Part shown: one piece after another, positions 20,538 through 50,568 of the stretch | Layout of the letters: each line of letters begins with the position of its first letter | Numbering within the stretch: the first letter of the stretch is position 1 | Notes under the pieces: model-generated | Databases searched by the model: none | What the model was told of the DNA's origin: nothing | What the model saw: the letters and a program-made list of their open reading frames with translations, nothing else | Made by a program: the position numbers and the translations under genes | DNA from: an uncultured Candidatus Saccharibacteria bacterium | GTDB taxonomy: Bacteria; Patescibacteriota; UBA1384; CAILIB01; JAUSJZ01 | Assembly: GCA_964421635.1 (NCBI GenBank) | Contig: CAYQWZ010000004.1 | Location: 15,652 to 79,651, forward strand | Direction: 5' to 3' | DNA length: 64,000 nt

Positions 20538-20999
20538 ATGTCAAAATGCATTTTATTGGTAGACGCTAATGTTTTTTCTTCTTTGTTACACAAAGATGAC
20601 GCTTTGCATAGAAATGCCAAAGAAATCTTTGAAATAATATCAAAAAATAATAAGGTAAAAATTATTGTTCCACCCATAATACTATACGAAATTTGTACAG
20701 TAGCACTTAAAAAAGGAATCGATAAAAAGATAATCAAAGAAAAAACTCAGAGAATTATTGACTGGAATAAGGTTTCTATTGTTTCTTTATCTGAACTTTC
20801 TATATATAAACACATTAATAGAACTGCTAGGAATCATGTAAGAGAACCAGCTATTAAAACAAATGACCTAATTATTCTCAACACTGCACTAGAACTAGAT
20901 GCAGCTTTAGTGTCAACAGACAAAAAACTACTAAAAAGCGCTAAAAGACTAAAAGTGCCTTGTTGTAGAAATAGTGAAGATCTACTCGGTCTTCTTTGA
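20538..20999 (+). CDS. PIN-domain protein (VapC-like ribonuclease toxin)
   Basis: The N-terminal ILLVDANVFSSLL carries the first PIN acidic residue, with conserved acidic positions downstream. The ~150 aa size fits a standalone PIN toxin. Confidence 0.65.
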   Translation: MSKCILLVDANVFSSLLHKDDALHRNAKEIFEIISKNNKVKIIVPPIILYEICTVALKKGIDKKIIKEKTQRIIDWNKVSIVSLSELSIYKHINRTARNHVREPAIKTNDLIILNTALELDAALVSTDKKLLKSAKRLKVPCCRNSEDLLGLL

Positions 21000-21190: not shown

Positions 21191-21508
21191 ATGACAAAAA
21201 AAAGAAAAGAAGGAAACGCTTATCTAATTCCACCCCGTGGCACTCGTAAAACAGTCGCTCGAATATTAGTACAGTTAACTGATGAAGCAGTAGATGATCA
21301 AAAGAAGTTGCAGCAACTATATGTACTGGCTGACAGATTACGCTATTTTCTAAATACTGACCAAGAAGATATTCATAATGGTTTAGGTACAGAAATTGCC
21401 TGCTGGATAGGCCTACTAATCACCACACACGAAATGGGTCTTGAATATCGAAAAAACCTTATTGAGATATTTCCTGAAGAGCTCGATATATTTGCAGACT
21501 CCAAGTGA
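21191..21508 (+). CDS. hypothetical protein (105 aa), translationally coupled to the CYTH gene
   Basis: ORF with no recognisable motif. Its TGA stop overlaps the GTG start of the next gene (GTGA). Confidence 0.4.
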   Translation: MTKKRKEGNAYLIPPRGTRKTVARILVQLTDEAVDDQKKLQQLYVLADRLRYFLNTDQEDIHNGLGTEIACWIGLLITTHEMGLEYRKNLIEIFPEELDIFADSK

Positions 21509-22056
21509 ACAAAGAAATTGAAGTAAAAATTGAATTAACCAAGAAAGAATTTAATTCTTTAGTTAAAAATTTTACTAACCCTGACTTAGAAAAAACCTAC
21601 GGTTATTTTAAAGATGATTTTTCAAATATTAAAGAAGGCATTTTCCCACGCATAAAAACTATTACGGGTGAAAATAACAAAATATTATTTGCTGTTAAAA
21701 GAAAAGTAGAAGATAATGATAATTTTTTCGAAAGGGAAGAGTTAGAAGTGACAGTTCAAGAAGAGAAAGAAAGTGTCGAGATGTTACGATTAATGCTTAA
21801 ATCTTTGGGTTTTACCAAAGAAATCATTTTTGAAAAGAAACGAAAAAATATAGTTAAAAAAGATATCGTCATCTCATACGATCATCTTCCCTTTGGTTAT
21901 TTTGTTGAATTTGAAGGTGCACCTAAAATCATTGAACAATATTTAAAAGAATATAAGTTAACTAAAAAACCACGCATCACTAAAGCATATTTAGCTCTTT
22001 GGTACGACTACAAAGAAAAGAATAATATATCTAAAGATAACTGCGAATTTAACTAA
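21505..22056 (+). CDS. CYTH-domain protein (triphosphate tunnel metalloenzyme / class IV adenylate cyclase-like)
   Basis: The N-terminal EIEVKIEL matches the defining CYTH EXEXK motif, and the ~180 aa size matches CyaB/thiamine-triphosphatase-like enzymes. Confidence 0.65.
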   Translation: MNKEIEVKIELTKKEFNSLVKNFTNPDLEKTYGYFKDDFSNIKEGIFPRIKTITGENNKILFAVKRKVEDNDNFFEREELEVTVQEEKESVEMLRLMLKSLGFTKEIIFEKKRKNIVKKDIVISYDHLPFGYFVEFEGAPKIIEQYLKEYKLTKKPRITKAYLALWYDYKEKNNISKDNCEFN

Positions 22057-22058
22057 TA

Positions 22059-22817
22059 TTATTCGGTTTTTGAAACCGCATCGCGATACAAACAGTAATC
22101 GCACTCTTCGTTAGCTTTAGGCAGCTTCTTCGACTTCAAACATTTATGGGCAGCTATAATAGATTGCTCAACCCAAGCATCGTCACCCTTATGAGCTATC
22201 AAAGTGACATCGAACTCTAATTTAGCGTCAAAGGCCTTCTTATCAGTATTACCGTTGCAGTAAACAAAGTAGCCGGTATCTGAGACCGGCAAACCTTTCT
22301 GTCGCAACAGCCACTGATAAATCTCCATCTGCCGTTTGTATCCGTCATGCCAATCTTGGTCAAGGATAGTAATCTCATCGTTCTTACTCGTCGCTTTATA
22401 ATCTACGACTATGTACTCCCCCGCACTATTAATCCATAAATCATCAATGGCACCCGTAATGGTTAAGCCCGTCGGTTCGTGAACAATAGATACACCCTTG
22501 AAGTTCTCTCGCCATTCGTCTAGCTCTTCGTGGGCTACGGGCTTAGCGTCAATGCCATATTTTTCTTGTAGCGGATGCTGCTTGTCTTTCGCCCGATAAA
22601 GGTCAAACTCTTTTTTTAATAATGTGTCAACGGCTGTATTTAGGTTAAAAGGATATCCCTTTGGTCGCCCCAACCCCAAACGGTTGTCTAAATAAAAACA
22701 ACGCGGGCATTGTAAAAAGAGGTCGAGTTTAGATCGGCTAAGTTTAAACTGGTTCTTGGTAGTAGGATTAAAGTTCCAGTTGCTATTGCGCGGGATTTTG
22801 TAGTATTTAGACATCAC
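22059..22817 (-). CDS. Cas4-like PD-(D/E)xK nuclease with Fe-S cysteine cluster (RecB-family, DUF83-like), no CRISPR nearby
   Basis: N-terminal CPRC, motif II IDDLWI, motif III VVDYK, the QxxxY motif (RQMEIYQWL) and C-terminal C-x12-C-x2-C. Its start overlaps the stop of the tandem-HEPN gene by 4 nt. Confidence 0.6.
   Translation of the reverse strand: MMSKYYKIPRNSNWNFNPTTKNQFKLSRSKLDLFLQCPRCFYLDNRLGLGRPKGYPFNLNTAVDTLLKKEFDLYRAKDKQHPLQEKYGIDAKPVAHEELDEWRENFKGVSIVHEPTGLTITGAIDDLWINSAGEYIVVDYKATSKNDEITILDQDWHDGYKRQMEIYQWLLRQKGLPVSDTGYFVYCNGNTDKKAFDAKLEFDVTLIAHKGDDAWVEQSIIAAHKCLKSKKLPKANEECDYCLYRDAVSKTE
22064..22098. repeat. 35-bp imperfect direct repeat, copy B (inside the 3' coding end of the Cas4-like nuclease gene)
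   Basis: See copy A at 20996-21030. The two copies bracket the two-gene CYTH cassette. Confidence 0.7.
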
Positions 22818-23905
22818 AAATTATTTTTTATCAATTCAGGTAATTTAACGCGTAACAGATTTAAAAAGTCATCTGCTAATTTTTTACAATTAATATGCCA
22901 TCTGTCAGCTTCGTAAATGTAACTAATAGCCTTGCCTTCTGAATCAATACTTAAATCGTATGGTCCATCTGACTTTTTTCCAAAATTATGTACTAGATTG
23001 TGCCTAAATATTTTTACAATATCGTCTCTGATATTACCTTCGTCATCAACAATCTCATTGTAATTTTGATTTTTTTTGTTACGCTTACAATCTATTACAT
23101 CTTTGTCATATAGTTCCTTTAATGTTCTCTTTACGTTAAGGTTTGTATTACCATCGATACCAAACTTATCATTAAAGATTGATCCCCAAACATCAAATAA
23201 TGCTGCCAATAAAACAGCGTAAGAATTAGATGGTCCTTCGAAATTGCTCGTTGAATAATTGTACGAAAAAGTTTTGCTATAGATATTCTCGATATCTCTT
23301 ATTGTCCATGTATACAGCCTAACTAGTAAATCAATTTTTATTGTTTTTATTCTTTCAGGTTTTGGTTCCATTATTGAATTATAAACATGAATAAAATTAT
23401 CTTGAAGATCACTATTGTTTTCAAGCATTTTAACATAACCAGTGTTGTCATTGATCACTGAGTCTTCAATGTCTTGTGCCAGAGTAAAAATACTCACCCA
23501 TAGCTTCTTAATGCCATCGAACTCCTCAATAATTAAATGTTTTGATCTATCATTGTGAATATATGCCCAAGTATATTTTTGATGTCCACAGTATACTGTT
23601 GGCTGCATCATAGCCTGATGTACTAAGGGATGACGGAATATATTCTGTACTAAAAAGGCTACATTTTCTTTTTTATAACTCATTCTGTCTTCCATATATT
23701 TTCTGGCATTATATGAAACACTGTATTTACTGGTAGAACCCTTATATAAAGCGCCCAATAAGTCTATTGTGGAGAAACAGTATAATAAACCAGGAAAAGG
23801 AGCTATGCCATCATCTTTTAAGACACAGTGCCTAACGTCCTCAATTAATGAATTTATTCTGTCGTTAAGAAATATTCGGGCTTCGTTTGAATTAAATTCC
23901 TTCAT
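22814..23905 (-). CDS. protein with two Rx4H (HEPN-like) motifs, candidate RNase/abortive-infection-type effector
   Basis: Two copies of IFRH-LVH (FRHPLVHQAMMQ and FRHNLVHNFGKK) each match the HEPN R-x4-6-H motif, suggesting an internally duplicated HEPN protein. It lies between hsdR and the Cas4-like nuclease with overlapping junctions. Confidence 0.45.
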   Translation of the reverse strand: MKEFNSNEARIFLNDRINSLIEDVRHCVLKDDGIAPFPGLLYCFSTIDLLGALYKGSTSKYSVSYNARKYMEDRMSYKKENVAFLVQNIFRHPLVHQAMMQPTVYCGHQKYTWAYIHNDRSKHLIIEEFDGIKKLWVSIFTLAQDIEDSVINDNTGYVKMLENNSDLQDNFIHVYNSIMEPKPERIKTIKIDLLVRLYTWTIRDIENIYSKTFSYNYSTSNFEGPSNSYAVLLAALFDVWGSIFNDKFGIDGNTNLNVKRTLKELYDKDVIDCKRNKKNQNYNEIVDDEGNIRDDIVKIFRHNLVHNFGKKSDGPYDLSIDSEGKAISYIYEADRWHINCKKLADDFLNLLRVKLPELIKNNL

Positions 23906-23915
23906 TTATTCAAGC

Positions 23916-26867
23916 CTACTCCTCGTTAGTTTTATCTAATTTTTCATACACCTCTTCAAACATTTTTTCTTTCACAAACTTACCAAATTCCGCATTTTCT
24001 ACAATCTTTTTGTATATATCAAAATTAGACTCAACCATAGTGTGCAATTGATCCTGAAAGATATGGGCAAAAACAAGCTTGAGAGCGTCTTTGTTATTTG
24101 TTTTGGCGCTTTGACTCAAGGTTTCGTTTCCTGTCAATCTCGTTTGTAGTTCGGCAAAGAATACTTTGTCACCTTCGGTGAAGTCAGTACCAAATCGTTC
24201 GTTCACTTCGTCAATTATGCGCGACAAAAATTCTTTTTCTTCGCCCATACCTTTACCTGTTCCCAGTCCCTCAATCGGCTTCAATTCACCGGTCTTTTTC
24301 TCCAGTTCAATATTGCCGCTGGATATTTGCTGGATGCGGTAAGTGTCCATATTCACATTGTCGGTAATTTCCACCGGCAATCTTTCTTTTTCGGCAGGTA
24401 ATTTACGCCCAAACATTCGCAAAAAGGCATAAAGTTTTTCTAAGTTCACATCCTTAAACGAGACAATCTGCGATAAGAAGGCATACATACGGACATAGTT
24501 TATTAATTGATCACGGAAATCAATTTTTTCTTTTTTTTCGCGCTTTAAATATTCTTCGACAATCGGGTCCAAAAGCGGATGTAGTTTTTCTTGCGTTGCT
24601 CCACGCTTGAAAAATACTTTGGCAAAGCTCTCCACATCATCTTTGGTAAAAATATCAAAATCAAGCAAGTTGCGCTCCAAATCATAAAGCTTGTTCGGGT
24701 CGGTTGCTTTGGTCAAAATCGCTTTGTCGTAATACGGCTGAAATGCTTTTTTTATTTCTTCTTCATAGTTGGCAAAATCCAAAACCAGCGTGTCCTCTTT
24801 ACCTTTGGTAGTGCGATTGAGCCGGCTCAAGGTCTGCACGGCCATCACACCACCTAATTTTTTATCAACATACATCGTATGAAGCAAAGGCTGATCGAAT
24901 CCGGTCTGGAATTTATTTGCTACTATCAAAATCTTAAATTCAGGTAATTTAAAGGTGTCGGCGGTGAGTTTATCGCTTCGCAAACCATTCATTCCGGCTT
25001 CGGTATATTCTTTTCCGCCGTCAGTTACCGTGCCGGAAAATGCCACCAAAGTTTTGATAGAATACTTGTGTTCTTTGATGAACTTGTCAAAAGCAAGTTT
25101 GTAGCGCACTGCGTGCAAACGCGAACGGGAGATAATCATCGCTTTGGCGTAGCCATCAATTTTGTGCGTAGTGTGCGACAGATAGTGTTCAATAATTAAT
25201 TCTGTTTTTTTACCAATAGCATGGTCATGCAACTCCACATATCCTTTTAAGAGCGCGATGCCCTTTTTCTTTTCATACTGCGGATCTTCTTCGGTTTTTT
25301 TGATCAAATTAAAGTAGGTCTGGAAGGTGGTGTAATTTTTTAAGACATCCAAAATAAAACCTTCTTCGATAGCTTGTCGCATTGAATACAAGTGAAAAGG
25401 TTCAAAAGTGCCATCGGCTTTTTTGGTACCGAAAAGTTGCATAGTTTTATCTTTCGGCGTAGCAGTAAAAGCAAAGAAGCTGATATTTTTTTGTCTGCCT
25501 CGGCTTGATAATTCCGCCAAAATCGCGTCTTCGCTCGTTAACTCTTCTTCGTTCTCATTCTCTGTTTCCGCTTCTTCCAGTGACCCAAGTGCTTTTTTTA
25601 AACTCTTGGTGCTCTCCCCAGATTGCGAAGAATGCGCCTCGTCAATAATCACGGCGAATTTTTTGCCTTCTTGTTTGATAAGTTCCTCCACGATGTAAGG
25701 AAATTTTTGCAAAGTGGAAACAATAATTCTTTTGCCAGATTCCAGCGCTTCTTTAAGTTGTTTTGAATGTTCGTCAATCGCCGCCACTACACCCTCCACT
25801 TGCGCGAATTGCCTGACTTCATCGCGAAGCTGTTTATCAATCACGCGTCGATCGGAAATAACAATCGCGGTATCAAAAATTTTCTGATCATTAGCATCGT
25901 GTAAACTGGAAAGTTTGTGAGCAAGCCATGAAATTGTTTTTGTCTTTCCACTTCCGGCGCTGTGCTGAATGAGATATTGCTGTCCGGCTCCGTGCTCTCG
26001 CGCGTGAGCCACCATTTTTCGCAGTGCATCCAACTGATGATAGCGCGGAAAAATAAGCGTCTCTTTTTCTTTTTGATTACCTTCCTCGTCCGTTGTCTTT
26101 TCAATAGATACGAGCATAAATTCGGCAATAATCTGAAGCAGGCTGTTTTTTTGCAAAACTTCTTCCCATAAATACGCGCTCTTGAACCCGCTCGGATTCA
26201 CCGGATTGCCAGCGCCGTTTTCAAAACCTTTGTTAAACGGCAAAAAGAATGTGGATTTGCCAGCCAAACGCGTGGTCATATACACGAGATCATTATCTAT
26301 GGCGAAATGCACCAAACAGCGCTTAAAGGCAAAAAGATCTTCGCGCGGGTCGCGGTCATAGCGATATTGTTTGATGGCGTCCTGTACATTTTGTCCGGTC
26401 AAATAGTTTTTGAGCTCCAGCGTAGAAATCGGCAAACCATTCAAGAAAATGACAGTATCAAGCGACTTGCCGTCTTTTTGGCTAAACTTCACCTGTCGCA
26501 TTATGGAAAAAATATTGTTCTGGTGGAGTTGGGCGTGTTCCGGATTCAAGGTGCTTTCGGGCGCAAAATACACCAATTGAAAACGCGAACCATAATCGGC
26601 AAAACCTTTGCGAAATACATCTAAAATCCCACGCGATTCAATTTCTGTTTTGAGACGATAAACAAATTTTGATTTTACTTCTTCGCCGTGCTGTTCTTTG
26701 AGTTTCTCCCATTCTTTTGGCTGGGTGGCGTAGATAAATTCAAAAAGCATTTCCTCGTCCATGCAGGATTCGGCATTGTAATTTTTTGGCTCACGTGCAC
26801 GATAGCCGGAAGCGGTCAAAACCGTTTCAATGTGCGCTTCAAATGACTTTTCTGATGTATCAATCAT
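23916..26867 (-). CDS. hsdR: Type I restriction enzyme R subunit (HsdR)
   Basis: 983 aa with an N-terminal PD-(D/E)xK region, SF2 helicase motifs (QHSAGSGKT, VIIDEAHSSQSG, and TGFD within the motif-VI region) and a C-terminal helical domain. Confidence 0.9.
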   Translation of the reverse strand: MIDTSEKSFEAHIETVLTASGYRAREPKNYNAESCMDEEMLFEFIYATQPKEWEKLKEQHGEEVKSKFVYRLKTEIESRGILDVFRKGFADYGSRFQLVYFAPESTLNPEHAQLHQNNIFSIMRQVKFSQKDGKSLDTVIFLNGLPISTLELKNYLTGQNVQDAIKQYRYDRDPREDLFAFKRCLVHFAIDNDLVYMTTRLAGKSTFFLPFNKGFENGAGNPVNPSGFKSAYLWEEVLQKNSLLQIIAEFMLVSIEKTTDEEGNQKEKETLIFPRYHQLDALRKMVAHAREHGAGQQYLIQHSAGSGKTKTISWLAHKLSSLHDANDQKIFDTAIVISDRRVIDKQLRDEVRQFAQVEGVVAAIDEHSKQLKEALESGKRIIVSTLQKFPYIVEELIKQEGKKFAVIIDEAHSSQSGESTKSLKKALGSLEEAETENENEEELTSEDAILAELSSRGRQKNISFFAFTATPKDKTMQLFGTKKADGTFEPFHLYSMRQAIEEGFILDVLKNYTTFQTYFNLIKKTEEDPQYEKKKGIALLKGYVELHDHAIGKKTELIIEHYLSHTTHKIDGYAKAMIISRSRLHAVRYKLAFDKFIKEHKYSIKTLVAFSGTVTDGGKEYTEAGMNGLRSDKLTADTFKLPEFKILIVANKFQTGFDQPLLHTMYVDKKLGGVMAVQTLSRLNRTTKGKEDTLVLDFANYEEEIKKAFQPYYDKAILTKATDPNKLYDLERNLLDFDIFTKDDVESFAKVFFKRGATQEKLHPLLDPIVEEYLKREKKEKIDFRDQLINYVRMYAFLSQIVSFKDVNLEKLYAFLRMFGRKLPAEKERLPVEITDNVNMDTYRIQQISSGNIELEKKTGELKPIEGLGTGKGMGEEKEFLSRIIDEVNERFGTDFTEGDKVFFAELQTRLTGNETLSQSAKTNNKDALKLVFAHIFQDQLHTMVESNFDIYKKIVENAEFGKFVKEKMFEEVYEKLDKTNEE

Positions 26868-26868
26868 A

Positions 26869-27216
26869 TTATTTTTTCGTTAAATATAGACAAACAATAT
26901 AAATTATTAAAGATGGTATCCCAACCGATAAAGCTAATGTCCAATTTTGTGTAGGGATAACTCCGACTGCAAAACCAAAACCCGCGGATGATATAAATTC
27001 AAAAAAAGTGATTAGCCAATAATTTTTTAGCTTTTCTTCCAAAATAACATTTCTTTTTTCAATTTCATATTTTTCCGTGCGTATCTTTTCTGCTTCATCC
27101 TGCGTCTTCTTCAAAGATGCTTCCAAATTATTTATTTTTTCGGACATCAATTTATATGCCGTCGTGGTTGACTGCTCTTTCTTTGTCAGCGTGTTTTGTG
27201 ATTTATTCTTCGCCAT
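26869..27216 (-). CDS. small coiled-coil protein with C-terminal double transmembrane hairpin, embedded in the R-M operon
   Basis: N-terminal heptad-rich region (LEASLKKTQDEAEKIRTEKYEIEKRNVILEEKLK), then two hydrophobic helices. Its stop abuts the hsdR start. Confidence 0.4.
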   Translation of the reverse strand: MAKNKSQNTLTKKEQSTTTAYKLMSEKINNLEASLKKTQDEAEKIRTEKYEIEKRNVILEEKLKNYWLITFFEFISSAGFGFAVGVIPTQNWTLALSVGIPSLIIYIVCLYLTKK

Positions 27217-27217
27217 A

Positions 27218-27586
27218 TCAGTTAAAAAGTTCAGTTAATGATATTGGCGACCAACCAAATGATTTTATTGGTTTAATGTTCGGTATTTGTGGAATAGCTG
27301 GAATTGGCGGTATTTGTGGAATAGCTGGAATTGGCGGTATTTGTGGAATAGGAAAAATCGGTGAAGGAAAATCGTTTGAATGCTGTGAGAAACCCGCAGT
27401 ATTGCCGTACAAATCCCTAATCACATATCCTTCAATCCAACCGCAATGCCTACCTCTATAATTGTAAATATATTGGTTGTCTTTTACATATCCAAGATTG
27501 TGTCCGTGGCGATTAAAAAATCTGCCTTGCCCATCAAGGATTATTTGCGCTGTTCCGTATCGATCAAAAAACCAAATGTTATTCAT
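27218..27586 (-). CDS. small beta-rich protein with proline/isoleucine nonapeptide tandem repeat, embedded in the R-M operon
   Basis: The N-terminus is Gly/Tyr/aromatic-rich (YIYNYRGRHCGWIEGYVIRDLYGN). The C-terminus is 2.6 copies of IPQIPPIPA, encoded by a perfect 27-bp tandem DNA repeat at ~27290-27360. Its start overlaps the hsdS stop by 8 nt. Confidence 0.4.
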   Translation of the reverse strand: MNNIWFFDRYGTAQIILDGQGRFFNRHGHNLGYVKDNQYIYNYRGRHCGWIEGYVIRDLYGNTAGFSQHSNDFPSPIFPIPQIPPIPAIPQIPPIPAIPQIPNIKPIKSFGWSPISLTELFN

Positions 27587-28934
27587 AATTTTTTATCATA
27601 ATTTTACCCGTTACGGCGCTGGTAATAAGCGCCTGTCGGTATTCTCGCAGTTTTTCAATCTGCATTTCTACTTTTTTCATCATCCCATCAATCTTTGCAC
27701 TTTCGTGGTCAATATAGTCAGCAATCTCTTTTTGCAGTGAATAAGGTGGCAATGTGATAATCAAATTTTCAATGACACCCATGCCAATATTTTGTTGCGT
27801 TCCATATGACCATGAAAACTCTACTTGATCATGAAATAATTTACTCAACAAAGAGTAAAATAAAAATATATATTGTGATTTCTTCTCATCCGCTCTAATC
27901 AGTGCCAAAGGTGACCAAATACTAAATTCAAAATCCACCTCAACTATTGCTATATTGCCGGTAGTAGCTCCGGATTTGATAAGAAAAATATCATTTTTTT
28001 GCGGTTTACATTTTTTTGAGTATAGTTTGTGAAGTTCCTCGGAAATAAAACCTCGTCTTAAATCAAAATTAATTTTTTCATTTTTTACAGCTTCGGCAGA
28101 AATAAAATTGACACCTTCGTCCAAAATTTCCGGGGTTTCGTGCGGGCCATCTGTGATTTTTATTCCTACAACTCGTTTAAGTGGTAAAGCCTGCCACCTT
28201 TCCGGAATATCACCCAGCCAGTCAATGCCGGAGGGTTTCATTTTTGCCTTCGGATCAAGGCCTTTGGTGACGGCGTGGGTGATGAGCGCTTGGCGTTTTT
28301 CTTTGAGAAGCGCCATCATCTTTTGCTTTTTCGCCACCATCTCATCAATTTTTGCCGTCTCACGGTCGAGAAAATCTGTGATCTGTTTCTGTTCATCCTT
28401 CGGAGGAGCAAATAAAAATGACTTACTTATAAATCCAGAATTCAATCCAGGTTGTGCCGAACCCCTCATTTCTAAAAATATTTGTTCTTGCCCAATCTTC
28501 GAGATTATAAAATAATATAAATATTTTGGAGTATTTTTATTGTTTGCTCTGATAATAAAAACATGTTCATTGACCGCAGCATCTTCCAAAAACGATTTAC
28601 CAATCAAAGCTGTTTTCCCAATAGTTGCGCCATCTTTAACTAATAAAACATCATTTTCTTTTATTTTACCTTGATTCATTTGGAGATAGTATTCTCGAGA
28701 AATGTATCTTGGATTCTCCAATAGTATTTCTCCATTCCATCCAACATGCTCACCGCCAATACTTAACACGCCACCGTCAAGATTGATGGATTCTGATTCA
28801 CGACCACCGCTTTGTAGTGGCTCTATAATATTTTTCAGCCGTTTCACTTCCCACCCAGTCGGAATATCGCCCAACCAGTCAATGCCGGAGGGTTTGTACT
28901 TGGAATATGTTTTGTATTTTGTCGCGGTTGTCAT
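27579..28934 (-). CDS. hsdS: Type I restriction-modification specificity subunit (HsdS)
   Basis: Two target-recognition domains separated by duplicated conserved regions (KPSGIDWLGDIPTGW and KPSGIDWLGDIPERW), plus coiled-coil spacers. Confidence 0.85.
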   Translation of the reverse strand: MTTATKYKTYSKYKPSGIDWLGDIPTGWEVKRLKNIIEPLQSGGRESESINLDGGVLSIGGEHVGWNGEILLENPRYISREYYLQMNQGKIKENDVLLVKDGATIGKTALIGKSFLEDAAVNEHVFIIRANNKNTPKYLYYFIISKIGQEQIFLEMRGSAQPGLNSGFISKSFLFAPPKDEQKQITDFLDRETAKIDEMVAKKQKMMALLKEKRQALITHAVTKGLDPKAKMKPSGIDWLGDIPERWQALPLKRVVGIKITDGPHETPEILDEGVNFISAEAVKNEKINFDLRRGFISEELHKLYSKKCKPQKNDIFLIKSGATTGNIAIVEVDFEFSIWSPLALIRADEKKSQYIFLFYSLLSKLFHDQVEFSWSYGTQQNIGMGVIENLIITLPPYSLQKEIADYIDHESAKIDGMMKKVEMQIEKLREYRQALITSAVTGKIMIKNYE

Positions 28935-28936
28935 AA

Positions 28937-29443
28937 TTAAATATCCATTAGCATTTTGGCGATTTCATCTTCCAGTTTTTTAATATCCCCGCCAATTTCA
29001 TCAAGCGGTCGCAAGGGTTTGTATTCATAAAAATAGCGCGTAAAACTAATCTCGTAGCCTACCTTGCCGATCTTGCCGTCTTTGTGATCGCAGTATTTCT
29101 TATCTTCGCTAATCCATGCGTCCGGCACATGTGGCAGGACTTCTCGCTTGAAATATTCGGTAATATCTTCGCCAAGCGAGACATTTTCATAATCGCGTAA
29201 ATCAACATCCGATTCAGGATTGCCTTTTTTGTCGGTAATGACATCGGCTGTTTCGTCGCGTTCGGAAAGACCTTTGAGAATGGCTTTTTTGACGGGAGCG
29301 TCTAGCTTAAGATTCGCTTTTTTGAAAGCTTGCTCTAATACTTCAATAAATTTTTCTTGATTTTTATAAAGTGTGTCGCCGATAGTGGCGAGTGTTTTCT
29401 GAATAGAAATTTGCAGAGCAAAACCGGCTTTTTCTTCTTCCAA
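28937..29443 (-). CDS. HsdM C-terminal-domain-like ORF (TTG start), in frame with hsdM across a single TAA: split hsdM or pseudogene candidate
   Basis: Same reading frame as the hsdM ORF at 29483-30967, separated from it only by TAA at 29483-29485 plus 13 sense codons. It has no ATG start. The content (VGYEISFTRYFYEYKPLRPLDEIGGDI) resembles the C-terminal region of long HsdM proteins, from memory. Confidence 0.45.
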   Translation of the reverse strand: MEEEKAGFALQISIQKTLATIGDTLYKNQEKFIEVLEQAFKKANLKLDAPVKKAILKGLSERDETADVITDKKGNPESDVDLRDYENVSLGEDITEYFKREVLPHVPDAWISEDKKYCDHKDGKIGKVGYEISFTRYFYEYKPLRPLDEIGGDIKKLEDEIAKMLMDI

Positions 29444-29482
29444 TTTTTTAAGCGGATCGCGCTTCTTGCTTTTAGCAAGATT

Positions 29483-30967
29483 TTAGAAAGTGGATTCGGC
29501 TTTCAGTCTTTCTAAACGCTCGGCGCTGGCTTGAAAATTAAGTTTGAGCGGGCGCTCAACGGTAATTTTGCGATAGCCAAAAAATTCATTCGGAAAGACT
29601 TTGACGATTTTACTTTTTTCGCCGTCCAAAGTAAGTTCGGTAATTTTTTGGATTTGTTCGTCAGAAATGACATTGCGTTTGTCGCCCAAGCTCTTGCGCA
29701 TTTTTTCGTAGAGATCAACTGCATTGATGAGTTTTACTTTACCCTTGTGATGATCTTTTTTGCGATTGGTCAGGACCCAAATATAGGTATGAATACCGGT
29801 ATTATAAAAAAGCTGGTTTGGTAGAGCAATGATTGTTTCCAGCCAGTCATTTTCAATAATCCAACGGCGAATTTCGCTTTCACCGCTTCCGGCATCTCCT
29901 GTAAAGAGTGGCGAACCATTCATAACAATCGCAATACGGCTTCCGCCGTTAGATGGTTTGATTTTAGTAAGCATTGTTTGCAGGAATAGCAATTGGCCGT
30001 CGCTAATTCGCGGAAGGCCGGCGCCGAATCGACCTTGAAAGCCGAACTCCGCTTCTTTTTCAATTTCTTTTTGATCTTTTTTCCATTCCTTGCCGTAAGG
30101 CGGATTGGAAAGCATATAATCAAAGGTTTCGCCAAAGAGATGATCGTGTGAAAGAGTGGAGCCAAATTTTATATTGTCAGCATTTTCGCCTTTGATCAGT
30201 AAGTCAGATTTAGCAACGGCGAAAGTTTCCGGATTTACTTCTTGACCAAACATTTCTACTTGAGCAGTATCATTTACGCTTTCCAAAATCCATTTTTTGG
30301 CTTCGGTAAGCATGCCACCGCTTCCGCAGGCCGGATCGTAAATTGTTTTAATAATGCGTTGTTTTTTCAAAATTTCCATGTCCGGCGAAAACAACAGATT
30401 GACCATCAGGCGGATAATTTCGCGCGGAGTAAAATGTTCTCCGGGATTTTCATTTGACGCTTCGTTAAACTTGCGAATCAATTCCTCAAAAACATAACCC
30501 ATTGCCAGATTGCTCACGCAATCTGGGTGCATTTCAACTTCGCTGAATTTTTCTATGACTTGATAGGTAAGATTGGCTTCTTCGAGTTTTTTTATTTGAC
30601 TTGAAAAATCAAATTTATCAAAAATTTCTCGCATTAGAGGGCTATATGCATTAAGGTACAAATTTAGATTTTTACCAATATTTTTTGGATCGTCTAAAAG
30701 TTTTTTGAAATCGTATTGTGAAGTATTATAAAAATTGTATCCGCTGGCTTTTTTTAAAATTCCGTCCATAGCTTCCAACCTACCTTTGTATTTTTCATAC
30801 TTTACCAACACATCAGCTTTAGTGTCTTCAAGCGCGGCATCAAGACGGCGCAGGACAGTAAGTGGTAAAATAACATCCGGATATTTCGCACGCTTAAAGT
30901 CATCACGTAAAAGGTTGGCGATGCTCCAGATGAAATTGACGATTTGTTGGTGATTAATTTCATTCAT
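29483..30967 (-). CDS. hsdM: Type I restriction-modification DNA methyltransferase subunit (HsdM), N-terminal and catalytic part
   Basis: HsdM_N helical domain, AdoMet motif I (IYDPACGSGGML), catalytic motif IV NPPYG, and the downstream helical region FGYRKITVERPLKLNF. Confidence 0.9.
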   Translation of the reverse strand: MNEINHQQIVNFIWSIANLLRDDFKRAKYPDVILPLTVLRRLDAALEDTKADVLVKYEKYKGRLEAMDGILKKASGYNFYNTSQYDFKKLLDDPKNIGKNLNLYLNAYSPLMREIFDKFDFSSQIKKLEEANLTYQVIEKFSEVEMHPDCVSNLAMGYVFEELIRKFNEASNENPGEHFTPREIIRLMVNLLFSPDMEILKKQRIIKTIYDPACGSGGMLTEAKKWILESVNDTAQVEMFGQEVNPETFAVAKSDLLIKGENADNIKFGSTLSHDHLFGETFDYMLSNPPYGKEWKKDQKEIEKEAEFGFQGRFGAGLPRISDGQLLFLQTMLTKIKPSNGGSRIAIVMNGSPLFTGDAGSGESEIRRWIIENDWLETIIALPNQLFYNTGIHTYIWVLTNRKKDHHKGKVKLINAVDLYEKMRKSLGDKRNVISDEQIQKITELTLDGEKSKIVKVFPNEFFGYRKITVERPLKLNFQASAERLERLKAESTF

Positions 30968-38280: not shown

Positions 38281-38665
38281 GGGGCCGAATAAATTAGACG
38301 TTAAATTACGTTTCGCAAATTGCATGTCGCAGCAATGAGTTTATCTGCGTTATTAAATGAACTTCCTTTAAAGACACGGAAATAGTCTTATTAGCAAGAT
38401 CAAGCAGGCTTTTAGTCCGCTAGCTCTTGCGCCAGTAGTCGCCTAATTGACTACCGTTCCCTTACCAATATCACACTTGGTGAGACCAGAGCGTCATATT
38501 GTGTGATCATCAATTTGCTCGCACCGTCACTTTGATGATTTTTGGTGCAACAGTCTATAGTGTTTAGCTGTCCTTATACCTATAGACTTAAAAAAGGGCA
38601 GAGAGCATGGTCAGTTTAGGAATGTTATTTATCGGACGCGGGTGAGACCCCCGCCGGCTCCACCA
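38281..38665 (+). ncRNA. ssrA: tmRNA (SsrA)
   Basis: tRNA-like ends: the 5' GGGGCCGAATAAATTAGACG resembles E. coli GGGGCUGAUUCUGGAUUCGACG, and the 3' GGACGCGGGTGAGACCCCCGCCGGCTCCACCA resembles GGACGGGGGUUCAAAUCCCCCCGGCUCCACCA. The acceptor helix GGGGCCG/CGGCTCC pairs. A possible tag frame ends ...SPLALAPVVA-TAA at 38444-38446, which is tentative. smpB lies 2 kb away. Confidence 0.8.
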
Positions 38666-50153: not shown

Positions 50154-50228
50154 GCGGGTGTAGCACAATGGCTAGTGCACGAGCCTTCCAAGCTTGTGAT
50201 GGCGGTTCGATTCCGCTCACCCGCTCCA
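50154..50228 (+). tRNA. tRNA-Gly (anticodon TCC)
   Basis: Acceptor GCGGGTG/CACCCGC, anticodon loop CTTCCAA, T-arm GGTTCGATTCC, and CCA encoded. It is the first of a five-tRNA cluster. Confidence 0.85.
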
Positions 50229-50231
50229 TGT

Positions 50232-50309
50232 GGTGGTTGTAGCTCAACTGGTTAGAGCGCCGGGTTGTGGTCCCGGAGGTTGTGGGTTCAAGTCCCATCA
50301 TCCACCCCA
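50232..50309 (+). tRNA. tRNA-His (anticodon GTG) with encoded G-1
   Basis: An extra 5' G precedes acceptor GTGGTTG/CATCCAC. Anticodon stem CCGGG/CCCGG with loop TTGTGGT, T-arm GTGGGTTCAAGTCCCAT, and CCA encoded. Confidence 0.8.
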
Positions 50310-50317
50310 GAAAATTT

Positions 50318-50394
50318 GCTCTCGTAGCTCAACAGGATAGAGCAACTCCCTTCTAAGGAGTAGGTTGCAAGTTCGAGTCTTGCCGAGAGTACCA
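50318..50394 (+). tRNA. tRNA-Arg (anticodon TCT)
   Basis: Acceptor GCTCTCG/CGAGAGT, anticodon stem ACTCC/GGAGT with loop CTTCTAA, T-arm GCAAGTTCGAGTCTTGC, and CCA encoded. Confidence 0.8.
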
Positions 50395-50406
50395 ATTAAT
50401 AGTTTA

Positions 50407-50482
50407 GGATCGCTAGCTCAATTGGTAGAGCAGAGGCCTCTTAAGCCTAAGGTTCCGGGTTCAAGTCCCGGGCGGTCCACCA
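50407..50482 (+). tRNA. tRNA-Lys (anticodon CTT)
   Basis: Acceptor GGATCGC/GCGGTCC, anticodon loop CTCTTAA, T-arm CCGGGTTCAAGTCCCGG, and CCA encoded. Confidence 0.8.
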
Positions 50483-50493
50483 AAAGCCACCGT

Positions 50494-50568
50494 GGCCCTA
50501 TCGTCTAATGGTTAGGACGCCAGATTTTCAATCTGGTAATCGGGGTTCAATTCCCCGTAGGGCTACCA
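50494..50568 (+). tRNA. tRNA-Glu (anticodon TTC)
   Basis: Acceptor GGCCCTA/TAGGGCT, anticodon stem CCAGA/TCTGG with loop TTTTCAA, T-arm CGGGGTTCAATTCCCCG, and CCA encoded. Confidence 0.8.

Follow-up and report, generated by a model that had tools for sequence, protein, structure and literature searches.

HEPN domains are recognized by an up-down core of four helices, arranged as two alpha-hairpins, with frequent inserts between helices 2 and 3, and by a motif placed at the end of helix 3 or at the start of the loop leading to helix 4, in which the residue following the arginine is mostly N, D or H; in many families, an acidic residue on helix 2 is found close to the motif (PMC3710099). The presence of HEPN genes in restriction-modification (R-M) loci is an established theme, with PrrC as the paradigm of the underlying logic: restriction acts first, and a latent RNase, which is released when restriction is blocked, acts second (PMC3710099). 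For the Cthe_2314-like HEPN family (PF18730), the 2013 survey gave no gene context (Anantharaman et al. 2013, PMC3710099), and the Cthe_2314 alignment is absent from its supplement. Here, we describe a gene found in a 64 000-nucleotide stretch (the window, to which the coordinates refer) of the chromosome of an uncultured Candidatus Saccharibacteria bacterium (contig CAYQWZ010000004.1). The gene lies within a type I R-M operon and encodes a protein (the target, in the following) formed by two HEPN-like domains of two distinct families, named A and B. The reading that we favour, to which a probability of roughly 55% can be given, is that of an R-M-linked tandem-HEPN RNase effector resulting from the fusion of an A and a B unit close to the Cthe_2314-like clade. 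The target and the parts of it that carry the argument are:

22814-23905, minus strand: target open reading frame (ORF), two HEPN-like domains fused; ATG start, 363 aa, TGA stop at 22814-22816
23354-23905, minus strand: N-terminal HEPN-like domain of the family A type (aa 1-184), 35-51% identical to stand-alone proteins of about 190-210 aa
22817-23353, minus strand: C-terminal HEPN-like domain of the family B type (aa 185-363), 41-56% identical to stand-alone proteins of about 165-178 aa
23618-23635, minus strand: motif 1, R91-H92-P-L-V-H96 (FRHPLVH = residues 90-96), at the C-terminal end of helix 79-96
22988-23005, minus strand: motif 2, R301-H302-N-L-V-H306 (FRHNLVH = residues 300-306), at the C-terminal end of helix 294-305
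23762-23764, minus strand: D48, acidic residue in helix 2 of the N domain (STIDLLG), near-invariant in the 136-sequence alignment and invariant in alignment A7
23195-23197, minus strand: D237, acidic residue in helix 2 of the C domain (FDVWGS), D/E in 24/24 family B sequences and followed by an invariant W-G-S

The ORF that the initial annotation had placed at 22814-23905 is real and 363 codons long, with the correction that it is encoded on the minus strand; the plus strand of the same interval contains no ORF of at least 60 aa. Both of the Rx4H motifs that had been claimed for it, FRHPLVH and FRHNLVH, are present, their spacing being 210 aa and not about 220. The ATG is preceded by GAGGAG, and a promoter/terminator scan returned promoter-like sites at chance level and was uninformative. 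The same 363-aa protein, identical and with the same neighbours, occurs on four recorded contigs; the two displayed places derive from separate samples, so that the fusion is real and not an artefact of assembly.

Residues 8-182 match family A, a set of stand-alone proteins of about 190-210 aa with the hallmarks PFPALLYCFSTIDLLGALY and FRHKLVHLAQP, while residues 187-360 match family B, a separate stand-alone set of about 165-190 aa with the hallmarks GPSxxFA..LA..D.WGS, FRHNLVHNFGK and RWHINC. The cluster representatives matching the target with E ≤ 0.001 are 212. In 5.8 billion clusters or 1.84 billion representatives, no other protein spans both halves, except for a fragment of the same protein; the A-B fusion is found in this lineage only, and the view that the architecture is unusual is supported. 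In alignment A3, the C-termini of family A reach residue ~183 and the family B proteins begin (MKTI...) at residue ~186. As the end of one family meets the start of the other, the target is a complete A unit followed by a complete B unit, with nearly no linker. The occurrence of A and B as adjacent gene pairs elsewhere was considered and dropped, no fetched locus holding both. With tblastn, no match was found in plasmid records (queries: the target, P0043 and P0010), nor in phage records with the target as the query. Among the GTDB species-representative genomes, scanned with alignment A6 for close family B patterns, two hits were obtained, namely, a Berkelbacteria and a Saccharibacteria metagenome-assembled genome (MAG), the overall search yield of alignment A6 being 2 genome loci and 3 metagenome loci.

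When the N half is compared with the C half by BLAST, the motif alone is found in common. At the level of family profiles, hhalign aligns A with B at 88% probability (E 3e-6) over 110 columns spanning helix 2 to helix 4, D48 and D237 being aligned together, and in MAFFT alignments the family A sequences spontaneously fall on the C half, where the Asp, one Tyr, and the R, H and H are in register. Furthermore, conservation reaches 90% or more at each of D48, Y77, R91, H92 and H96 in the 136-sequence alignment of families A and B. The profile match, the register and the shared conserved residues make the two halves ancient, distant paralogs.

A bare R-x4-H would be expected by chance about 0.4 times in a protein of this size (an estimate based on typical R and H frequencies). 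Both motifs go beyond such chance occurrence, since their R and H residues are near-invariant among the relatives: in family A, R91 is found in 63/64, H92 in 64/64 and H96 in 64/64 sequences; in family B, the R and the last H are found in 24/24, and the residue after the R is H in 18 and N in 6. In both halves, a polar residue of the N/D/H set follows the R and the spacing is that of Rx4-6H, as in HEPN motifs; D48 and D237 similarly provide the helix-2 acidic residue, and the typical Ex3[KR] pattern is not formed. The motif region of the C half fully matches the family B consensus. The N half has diverged around its motif: K93P (K in 60/64) and L97Q (L in 54/64) are found in the target alone among the 64 family A sequences, and P100M is off consensus without being unique (P in 56, M in one other sequence). 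In known HEPN enzymes, the region around the motif forms the dimer interface. The asymmetry between the two motifs might, therefore, reflect an interface remodelled for an unlike partner or, equally, one site undergoing decay.

Structure models were obtained with AlphaFold2 (AF2). For the N half alone (predicted local distance difference test, pLDDT, 91; predicted template modelling score, pTM, 0.88), the elements are helix 1 (residues 6-28), helix 2 (36-55, with D48), an extra helix (60-74), helix 3 (79-96, with R91-H96 at its end), a beta-meander (104-138), helix 4 (139-151) and then two more helices (one at 157-179). In the C half of the full-length model (pLDDT 83.7), helix 1 (191-212), helix 2 (227-244, with D237), an extra helix (254-276), helix 3 (294-305, ending in R301-H306), beta strands (318-339) and helix 4 (340-362) follow each other, so that the order of the elements is common to the two halves. 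The usable alignment for the full-length model consisted of 16 family A and 4 family B sequences, the others having A misplaced on the C half; with four family B homologs, the C half of this model rests on a thin alignment. In both predicted halves, the type and position of the motif, the acidic residue of the second helix and the extra helix preceding helix 3 fit the HEPN description. With respect to the two four-helix bundles with juxtaposed R and H residues that had been anticipated from AlphaFold modelling, the order of the helices and the placement of the motifs agree in both halves, while the packing of one domain against the other is predicted with low confidence. Among the viral models of BFVD, two uncharacterised phage proteins, A0A3G2KI42 (Arthrobacter phage Nandita) and A0A0H4TI24, match one domain (Foldseek probability 1.00, E about 0.05, target TM 0.49-0.61), with no sequence match in phage records.

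A curated family is reached through a relative. P0043, a family B protein 37% identical to the target (E 4e-21), matches PF18730 (HEPN_Cthe2314) with 27.4 bits and E 3.9e-6, to be compared with a gathering cut-off of 27.1 bits, over 105 residues corresponding to positions 51-156 of the 174-position model; P0186 gives a weak match to the same model (E 0.06). As judged from sequence, PF18730 is the nearest curated family. The target itself is unmatched and 2/136 relatives match PF18730, and HEPN membership, therefore, rests on a transitive link. On this transitive and on topological grounds, we consider it quite likely that both halves represent a divergent HEPN branch near Cthe_2314. The initial annotation, which took the two motifs for signatures of HEPN RNases and proposed a Pfam search as a check, is thus supported in part: two homologous domains with R[H/N]xxxH, the placement of motif and acid, and the match of P0043 agree with it, but the Pfam search gave no match for the target, P0043 being the sole relative that passes the threshold, and no profile hits the target directly. 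A match of the target to CbrC, scoring 16 bits (E 0.0076) where the cut-off is 300, was rejected as noise.

The genes of the minus strand are tightly spaced or overlapping, in the order hsdM, hsdS, beta-flower, 115-aa gene, hsdR, target and nuclease. The neighbours of the target in this operon are:

28937-30967, minus strand: hsdM, type I methyltransferase, split (PADLOC MTase_I PDLC03029)
27579-28934, minus strand: hsdS, type I specificity subunit (Pfam Methylase_S; PADLOC Specificity_I 6.8e-115)
27218-27586, minus strand: 4-fold beta-flower protein, between hsdS and hsdR (Pfam PF21784, E 2.6e-27)
26869-27216, minus strand: 115-aa protein between hsdS and hsdR (no family match)
23916-26867, minus strand: hsdR, 983 aa (Pfam HSDR_N, SWI2_SNF2, ResIII, T1R_D3-like; PADLOC REase_I; TIGR00348)
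22059-22814, minus strand: Cas4/RecB-family PD-(D/E)XK nuclease, 251 aa (Pfam PDDEXK_1 3.2e-15; PADLOC Cas4 1.3e-11)

The location of the gene between hsdR and a nuclease, as first annotated, is correct: the end of hsdR precedes the ATG of the target by 10 nt and, downstream, the ATG of the nuclease, which is the one picked by gene callers, shares one base with the TGA of the target (TGATG). The hsdM gene is present as two ORFs, one of 494 aa (29483-30967) and a 168-aa continuation (28937-29443), with a single in-frame TAA at 29483-29485; the two match positions 1-495 and 513-659 of a single profile, PDLC03029, which has 661 positions. Recoding of stop codons was considered and dropped, long housekeeping ORFs being intact under table 11 and the hsdM stop being TAA. 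This TAA may reflect a mutation to a stop codon, an error of sequencing or a gene that is naturally split and, if real, the methylase is perhaps impaired beside an intact hsdR.

The interrupted hsdM raises the issue of whether the R-M locus is decaying and the target is an inert leftover within it, the fusion having arisen by accidental loss of a stop codon and having no current function. The confinement of the fusion to one lineage and the diverged surroundings of the N-half motif would be in line with such an origin. However, the 363-codon ORF is intact and identical on all 4 recorded contigs, hsdR, hsdS and the nuclease gene are full length, the catalytic-type residues are kept in both halves, with the full family B consensus in the C half, and the end of A joins the start of B exactly, without frameshift debris. 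An inert remnant appears, then, to be a very improbable explanation.

The partner nuclease exhibits the RecB-family motifs D...DYK and QMEIY (D...DxK, QxxxY), with a CxxC near each terminus. It resembles Cas4 in the PDDEXK_1 and Cas4 profile matches, in the RecB motifs and in the terminal cysteine pairs, and differs from it in the score with the TIGR00372 cas4 equivalog (33.9 bits, E 2.5e-8, under the cut-off of 65), in the lack of a CRISPR context and in the arrangement of the cysteines, 2+2, that of Cas4 being 1+3. No CRISPR-like repeat array is found in the window, and among the scanned neighbours no gene besides the Cas4-like nuclease matches a cas profile; a CRISPR link for this gene was dropped on account of the missing array. 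The nuclease is 63% identical to the product of a PDDEXK_1 gene of another family B locus (L004), and the adjoining family B proteins are 51% identical to each other; in L004, a Shedu gene separates the family B gene from that of the nuclease. These two loci suggest, on a thin basis, two independent co-occurrences of such a nuclease with a family B gene.

This association might also point to a HEPN-like module without catalytic function, which would bind RNA or a nucleotide and serve as a sensor or adaptor controlling the Cas4-type nuclease or HsdR. Translational coupling to the nuclease and the recurrence of a nuclease ortholog near a family B gene would suit such a role, K93P, L97Q and P100M beside the N-half motif suggest a relaxed catalytic constraint in one domain, and some HEPN domains are non-catalytic binders (PMC3710099). 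On the other hand, HEPN domains of this kind typically lose Rx4-6H (PMC3710099), whereas both halves of the target retain the near-invariant R and H, and a nuclease of this kind is missing from the vicinity of most family A and B genes. We regard a non-catalytic module as unlikely.

The linkage of family B to R-M genes is recurrent. In a context sample of 10 distinct loci, R-M genes adjoin the family B gene in 6, in agreement with the general statement, made on first inspection of the locus, that HEPN genes are recurrently embedded in R-M loci. The surroundings of the family B genes are:

Window: family B half of the target within a type I R-M operon
L014: family B near hsdS and a DpnI-like gene (type I)
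L015: family B, a 192-aa gene and hsdR (type I)
L004-8: HKD-Snf2 helicase, type IIG enzyme, small membrane protein, family B, Shedu SduA, PDDEXK_1
L021/22: N6_N4 methylase and MwoI/BglI-like endonuclease (type II pair), family B
L023: methylase-Mrr fusion overlapping the family B gene
L018 (1319-3324): AbiEii-like nucleotidyltransferase directly upstream of family B, DUF3800 downstream
L009, L017 and L019: no recognised defence gene around family B

The layout of L018 is reminiscent of that of HEPN-MNT toxin-antitoxin pairs. L004 (1-11914) is a compact defence island, in which the helicase corresponds to PADLOC C3a139 and a zinc-ribbon protein follows PDDEXK_1. Small predicted membrane proteins, unrelated to each other by eye, are encoded near the HEPN-like genes in three R-M loci (L004, 7558-8004, 148 aa; L014, 761-1090, 109 aa; and the window, 26869-27216, 115 aa). 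In the last of these, the N-terminal half is polar and rich in charges, resembling a coiled coil by eye, and the C-terminal half contains two hydrophobic segments.

The remaining features of the locus can be described briefly. The 4-fold beta-flower fold was described in 2023 without a known function (PMC10584680), and the presence of its gene within an R-M operon may be a hint of a role in defence. At 27281-27351, inside the beta-flower gene, a 27-nt unit is repeated in tandem without mismatch (2.6 copies, 100% match); it codes for proline-rich repeats of the IPQIPPIPA type in the C-terminal tail of the protein, and is a possible site of length variation. On the plus strand, convergent with the nuclease gene, a 105-aa ORF (21191-21508) overlaps a CYTH-domain gene (21505-22056), and a PIN-domain toxin-like gene is found at 20538-20999, also on the plus strand and convergent; in L030, a 50-aa gene is called directly upstream of the PIN gene. 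The CYTH and PIN genes and the R-M operon form a small accessory islet amid housekeeping genes: one flank carries thrS, glyA, folD and clpB, and the opposite flank a MiaB-like gene, L25 and uvrB. The G+C content of the chromosome is ~39%, and RNA genes at 1239-1587, 38281-38665 and 50154-50568 correspond to RNase P RNA, transfer-messenger RNA (tmRNA) and a five-tRNA cluster; the presence of these ordinary RNA genes indicates that the window belongs to a bacterial chromosome and not to a mobile element.

A number of observations weigh against a tandem-HEPN RNase effector. The beta-sheet insert of 30-40 residues that follows helix 3 and precedes helix 4 is not typical of HEPN. The pTM of the full-length AF2 model is 0.60 versus 0.88 for one domain, from which, the per-residue confidence being similar, it appears that AlphaFold is uncommitted on the orientation of the domains. 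The target has no match in Pfam, NCBIfam, PADLOC, PHROGs or the PDB sequences; 134/136 members of the two families have no Pfam match, and of the 2/136 that touch PF18730 one is exactly at threshold. The profiles of family A or B find no PDB sequence, and Foldseek searches of the PDB with the full-length and N-half models return nothing significant: the best E-values, 0.9 and 0.25, are those of baculovirus capsid proteins, and the HEPN-type entries are found in the noise (Las1, E 2.4; AbiV, E 7, TM 0.33-0.36; KNTase-type ANT, E > 2), so that similarity to solved HEPN structures is not found by this route. K93P, unique to the target, may mean that the N-half motif is impaired, and the in-frame stop in hsdM that the locus may be decaying. 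Finally, family A genes are mostly solitary (L001 between housekeeping genes; L024 near an integrase; L026 near DUF4238 and an Eco57I-type methylase; L028). A constitutive toxin role is unlikely for genes that are mostly solitary and, in one case, surrounded by housekeeping genes, and an antitoxin-like or sensor partner is not evident. As no conserved antitoxin or sensor accompanies the A or B genes, the RNase might be restrained or specific, or else be controlled by contacts with proteins, e.g. with HsdR.

The structural part of these observations leads one to ask whether the domains have an alpha+beta fold unrelated to HEPN, the RHxxxH helix and the conserved Asp being, for instance, the metal or phosphate site of another enzyme or part of a structural protein. 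In addition to the missing solved HEPN neighbour and direct profile match, and to a sizeable beta-sheet element in each domain, the position of H92 and H96 one helical turn apart, like in two-His metal sites, would favour it. A two-His metal site is, however, disfavoured by the replacement of the first His by Asn in 6/24 family B sequences with the R and the last His constant, a pattern that is the HEPN consensus. The match of P0043 to PF18730 and the agreement of helix order, motif position and helix-2 acid with the published HEPN description (PMC3710099) also speak against an unrelated fold, the likelihood of which we consider low.

If the target is a tandem-HEPN effector, its origin and action could be envisaged as follows. 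A family A gene would have been joined end to end with a family B gene, both being found elsewhere as separate stand-alone genes. As in the HEPN enzymes characterised so far, each domain would supply an R-[H/N]-x3-H motif and a helix-2 acid to a metal-independent endoribonuclease site. For such a site, stand-alone A or B proteins would need to self-associate, while in the fusion the two unlike domains are predicted to pair intramolecularly. The protein, whose gene is the last but one of the type I R-M operon and is coupled in translation with that of a Cas4/RecB-type DNA nuclease, would act as a second-line defence effector, latent until triggered by the failure or inhibition of restriction, and then cutting RNA (host or phage transcripts, or tRNA), with the co-translated partner nuclease possibly cooperating by acting on DNA. 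A more tentative and rather doubtful proposal goes further, in that families A and B would form an unannotated, beta-sheet-bearing HEPN branch, found mostly in uncultivated bacteria (the two GTDB hits with close family B patterns are MAGs of the candidate phyla radiation), that became fused in this lineage as an obligate hetero-pseudodimer; with a dedicated Cas4-type DNase, it would constitute a new module of two enzymes, acting on RNA and on DNA, that serves R-M systems of various types as a fail-safe.

What is new here is the description of two unannotated families, their beta-sheet insertion, the linkage of family B with R-M, the A-B heterofusion and the coupling with a Cas4-type nuclease. 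Layered (restriction plus abortive) immunity by means of HEPN RNases encoded within R-M loci is a recognised arrangement, of which few cases have been characterised beyond PrrC. The linkage of family B adds a context in the vicinity of the Cthe_2314-like clade, which had none in the 2013 survey, the heterofusion of HEPN paralogs offers a compact system to study how composite HEPN sites arise from unlike halves, and the partner gene introduces a possible RNase-DNase pairing. If the domains were inactive or not HEPN, the finding would reduce to an uncharacterised accessory gene in a type I R-M operon.

Among known systems, the Cthe_2314-like family shares with the target and its relatives the small size of the bacterial proteins, the conserved Rx4H and the polar residue after the R, and P0043 passes the PF18730 threshold. 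The target departs from it by being a two-domain heterofusion and not a single domain, family B is R-M-linked and 134/136 relatives are unmatched. With respect to HEPN-MNT pairs, no nucleotidyltransferase is found among the scanned genes of the operon, the AbiEii-like one being beside a family B gene in L018 only. As in PrrC and RloC, the gene of a HEPN-type effector is found inside a type I hsdMSR locus. These proteins, however, carry their own N-terminal ABC-ATPase (ABC/Rad50-like) and a single HEPN domain, whereas the target has two HEPN-like domains and no ATPase according to Pfam and NCBIfam, has its gene downstream of hsdR and is coupled with a PD-(D/E)XK nuclease. In sequence, nothing similar to PrrC or RloC was detected in the target, which, lacking the ABC-ATPase and having two HEPN units, falls outside the PrrC family.

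Cas13, to which the protein was at first compared, has two HEPN motifs that form one composite RNase site. The analogy holds for the architecture, with two HEPN-type motifs in one chain, and does not extend to the context, the window containing no cas genes or CRISPR-like array. Nor does it extend to size and RNA recognition: the target consists of 363 aa, compared with about 1000 aa in Cas13, and has no lobe for the recognition of CRISPR RNA (crRNA). By contrast with those of Cas13, its two domains are recognisably paralogous units of the stand-alone type.

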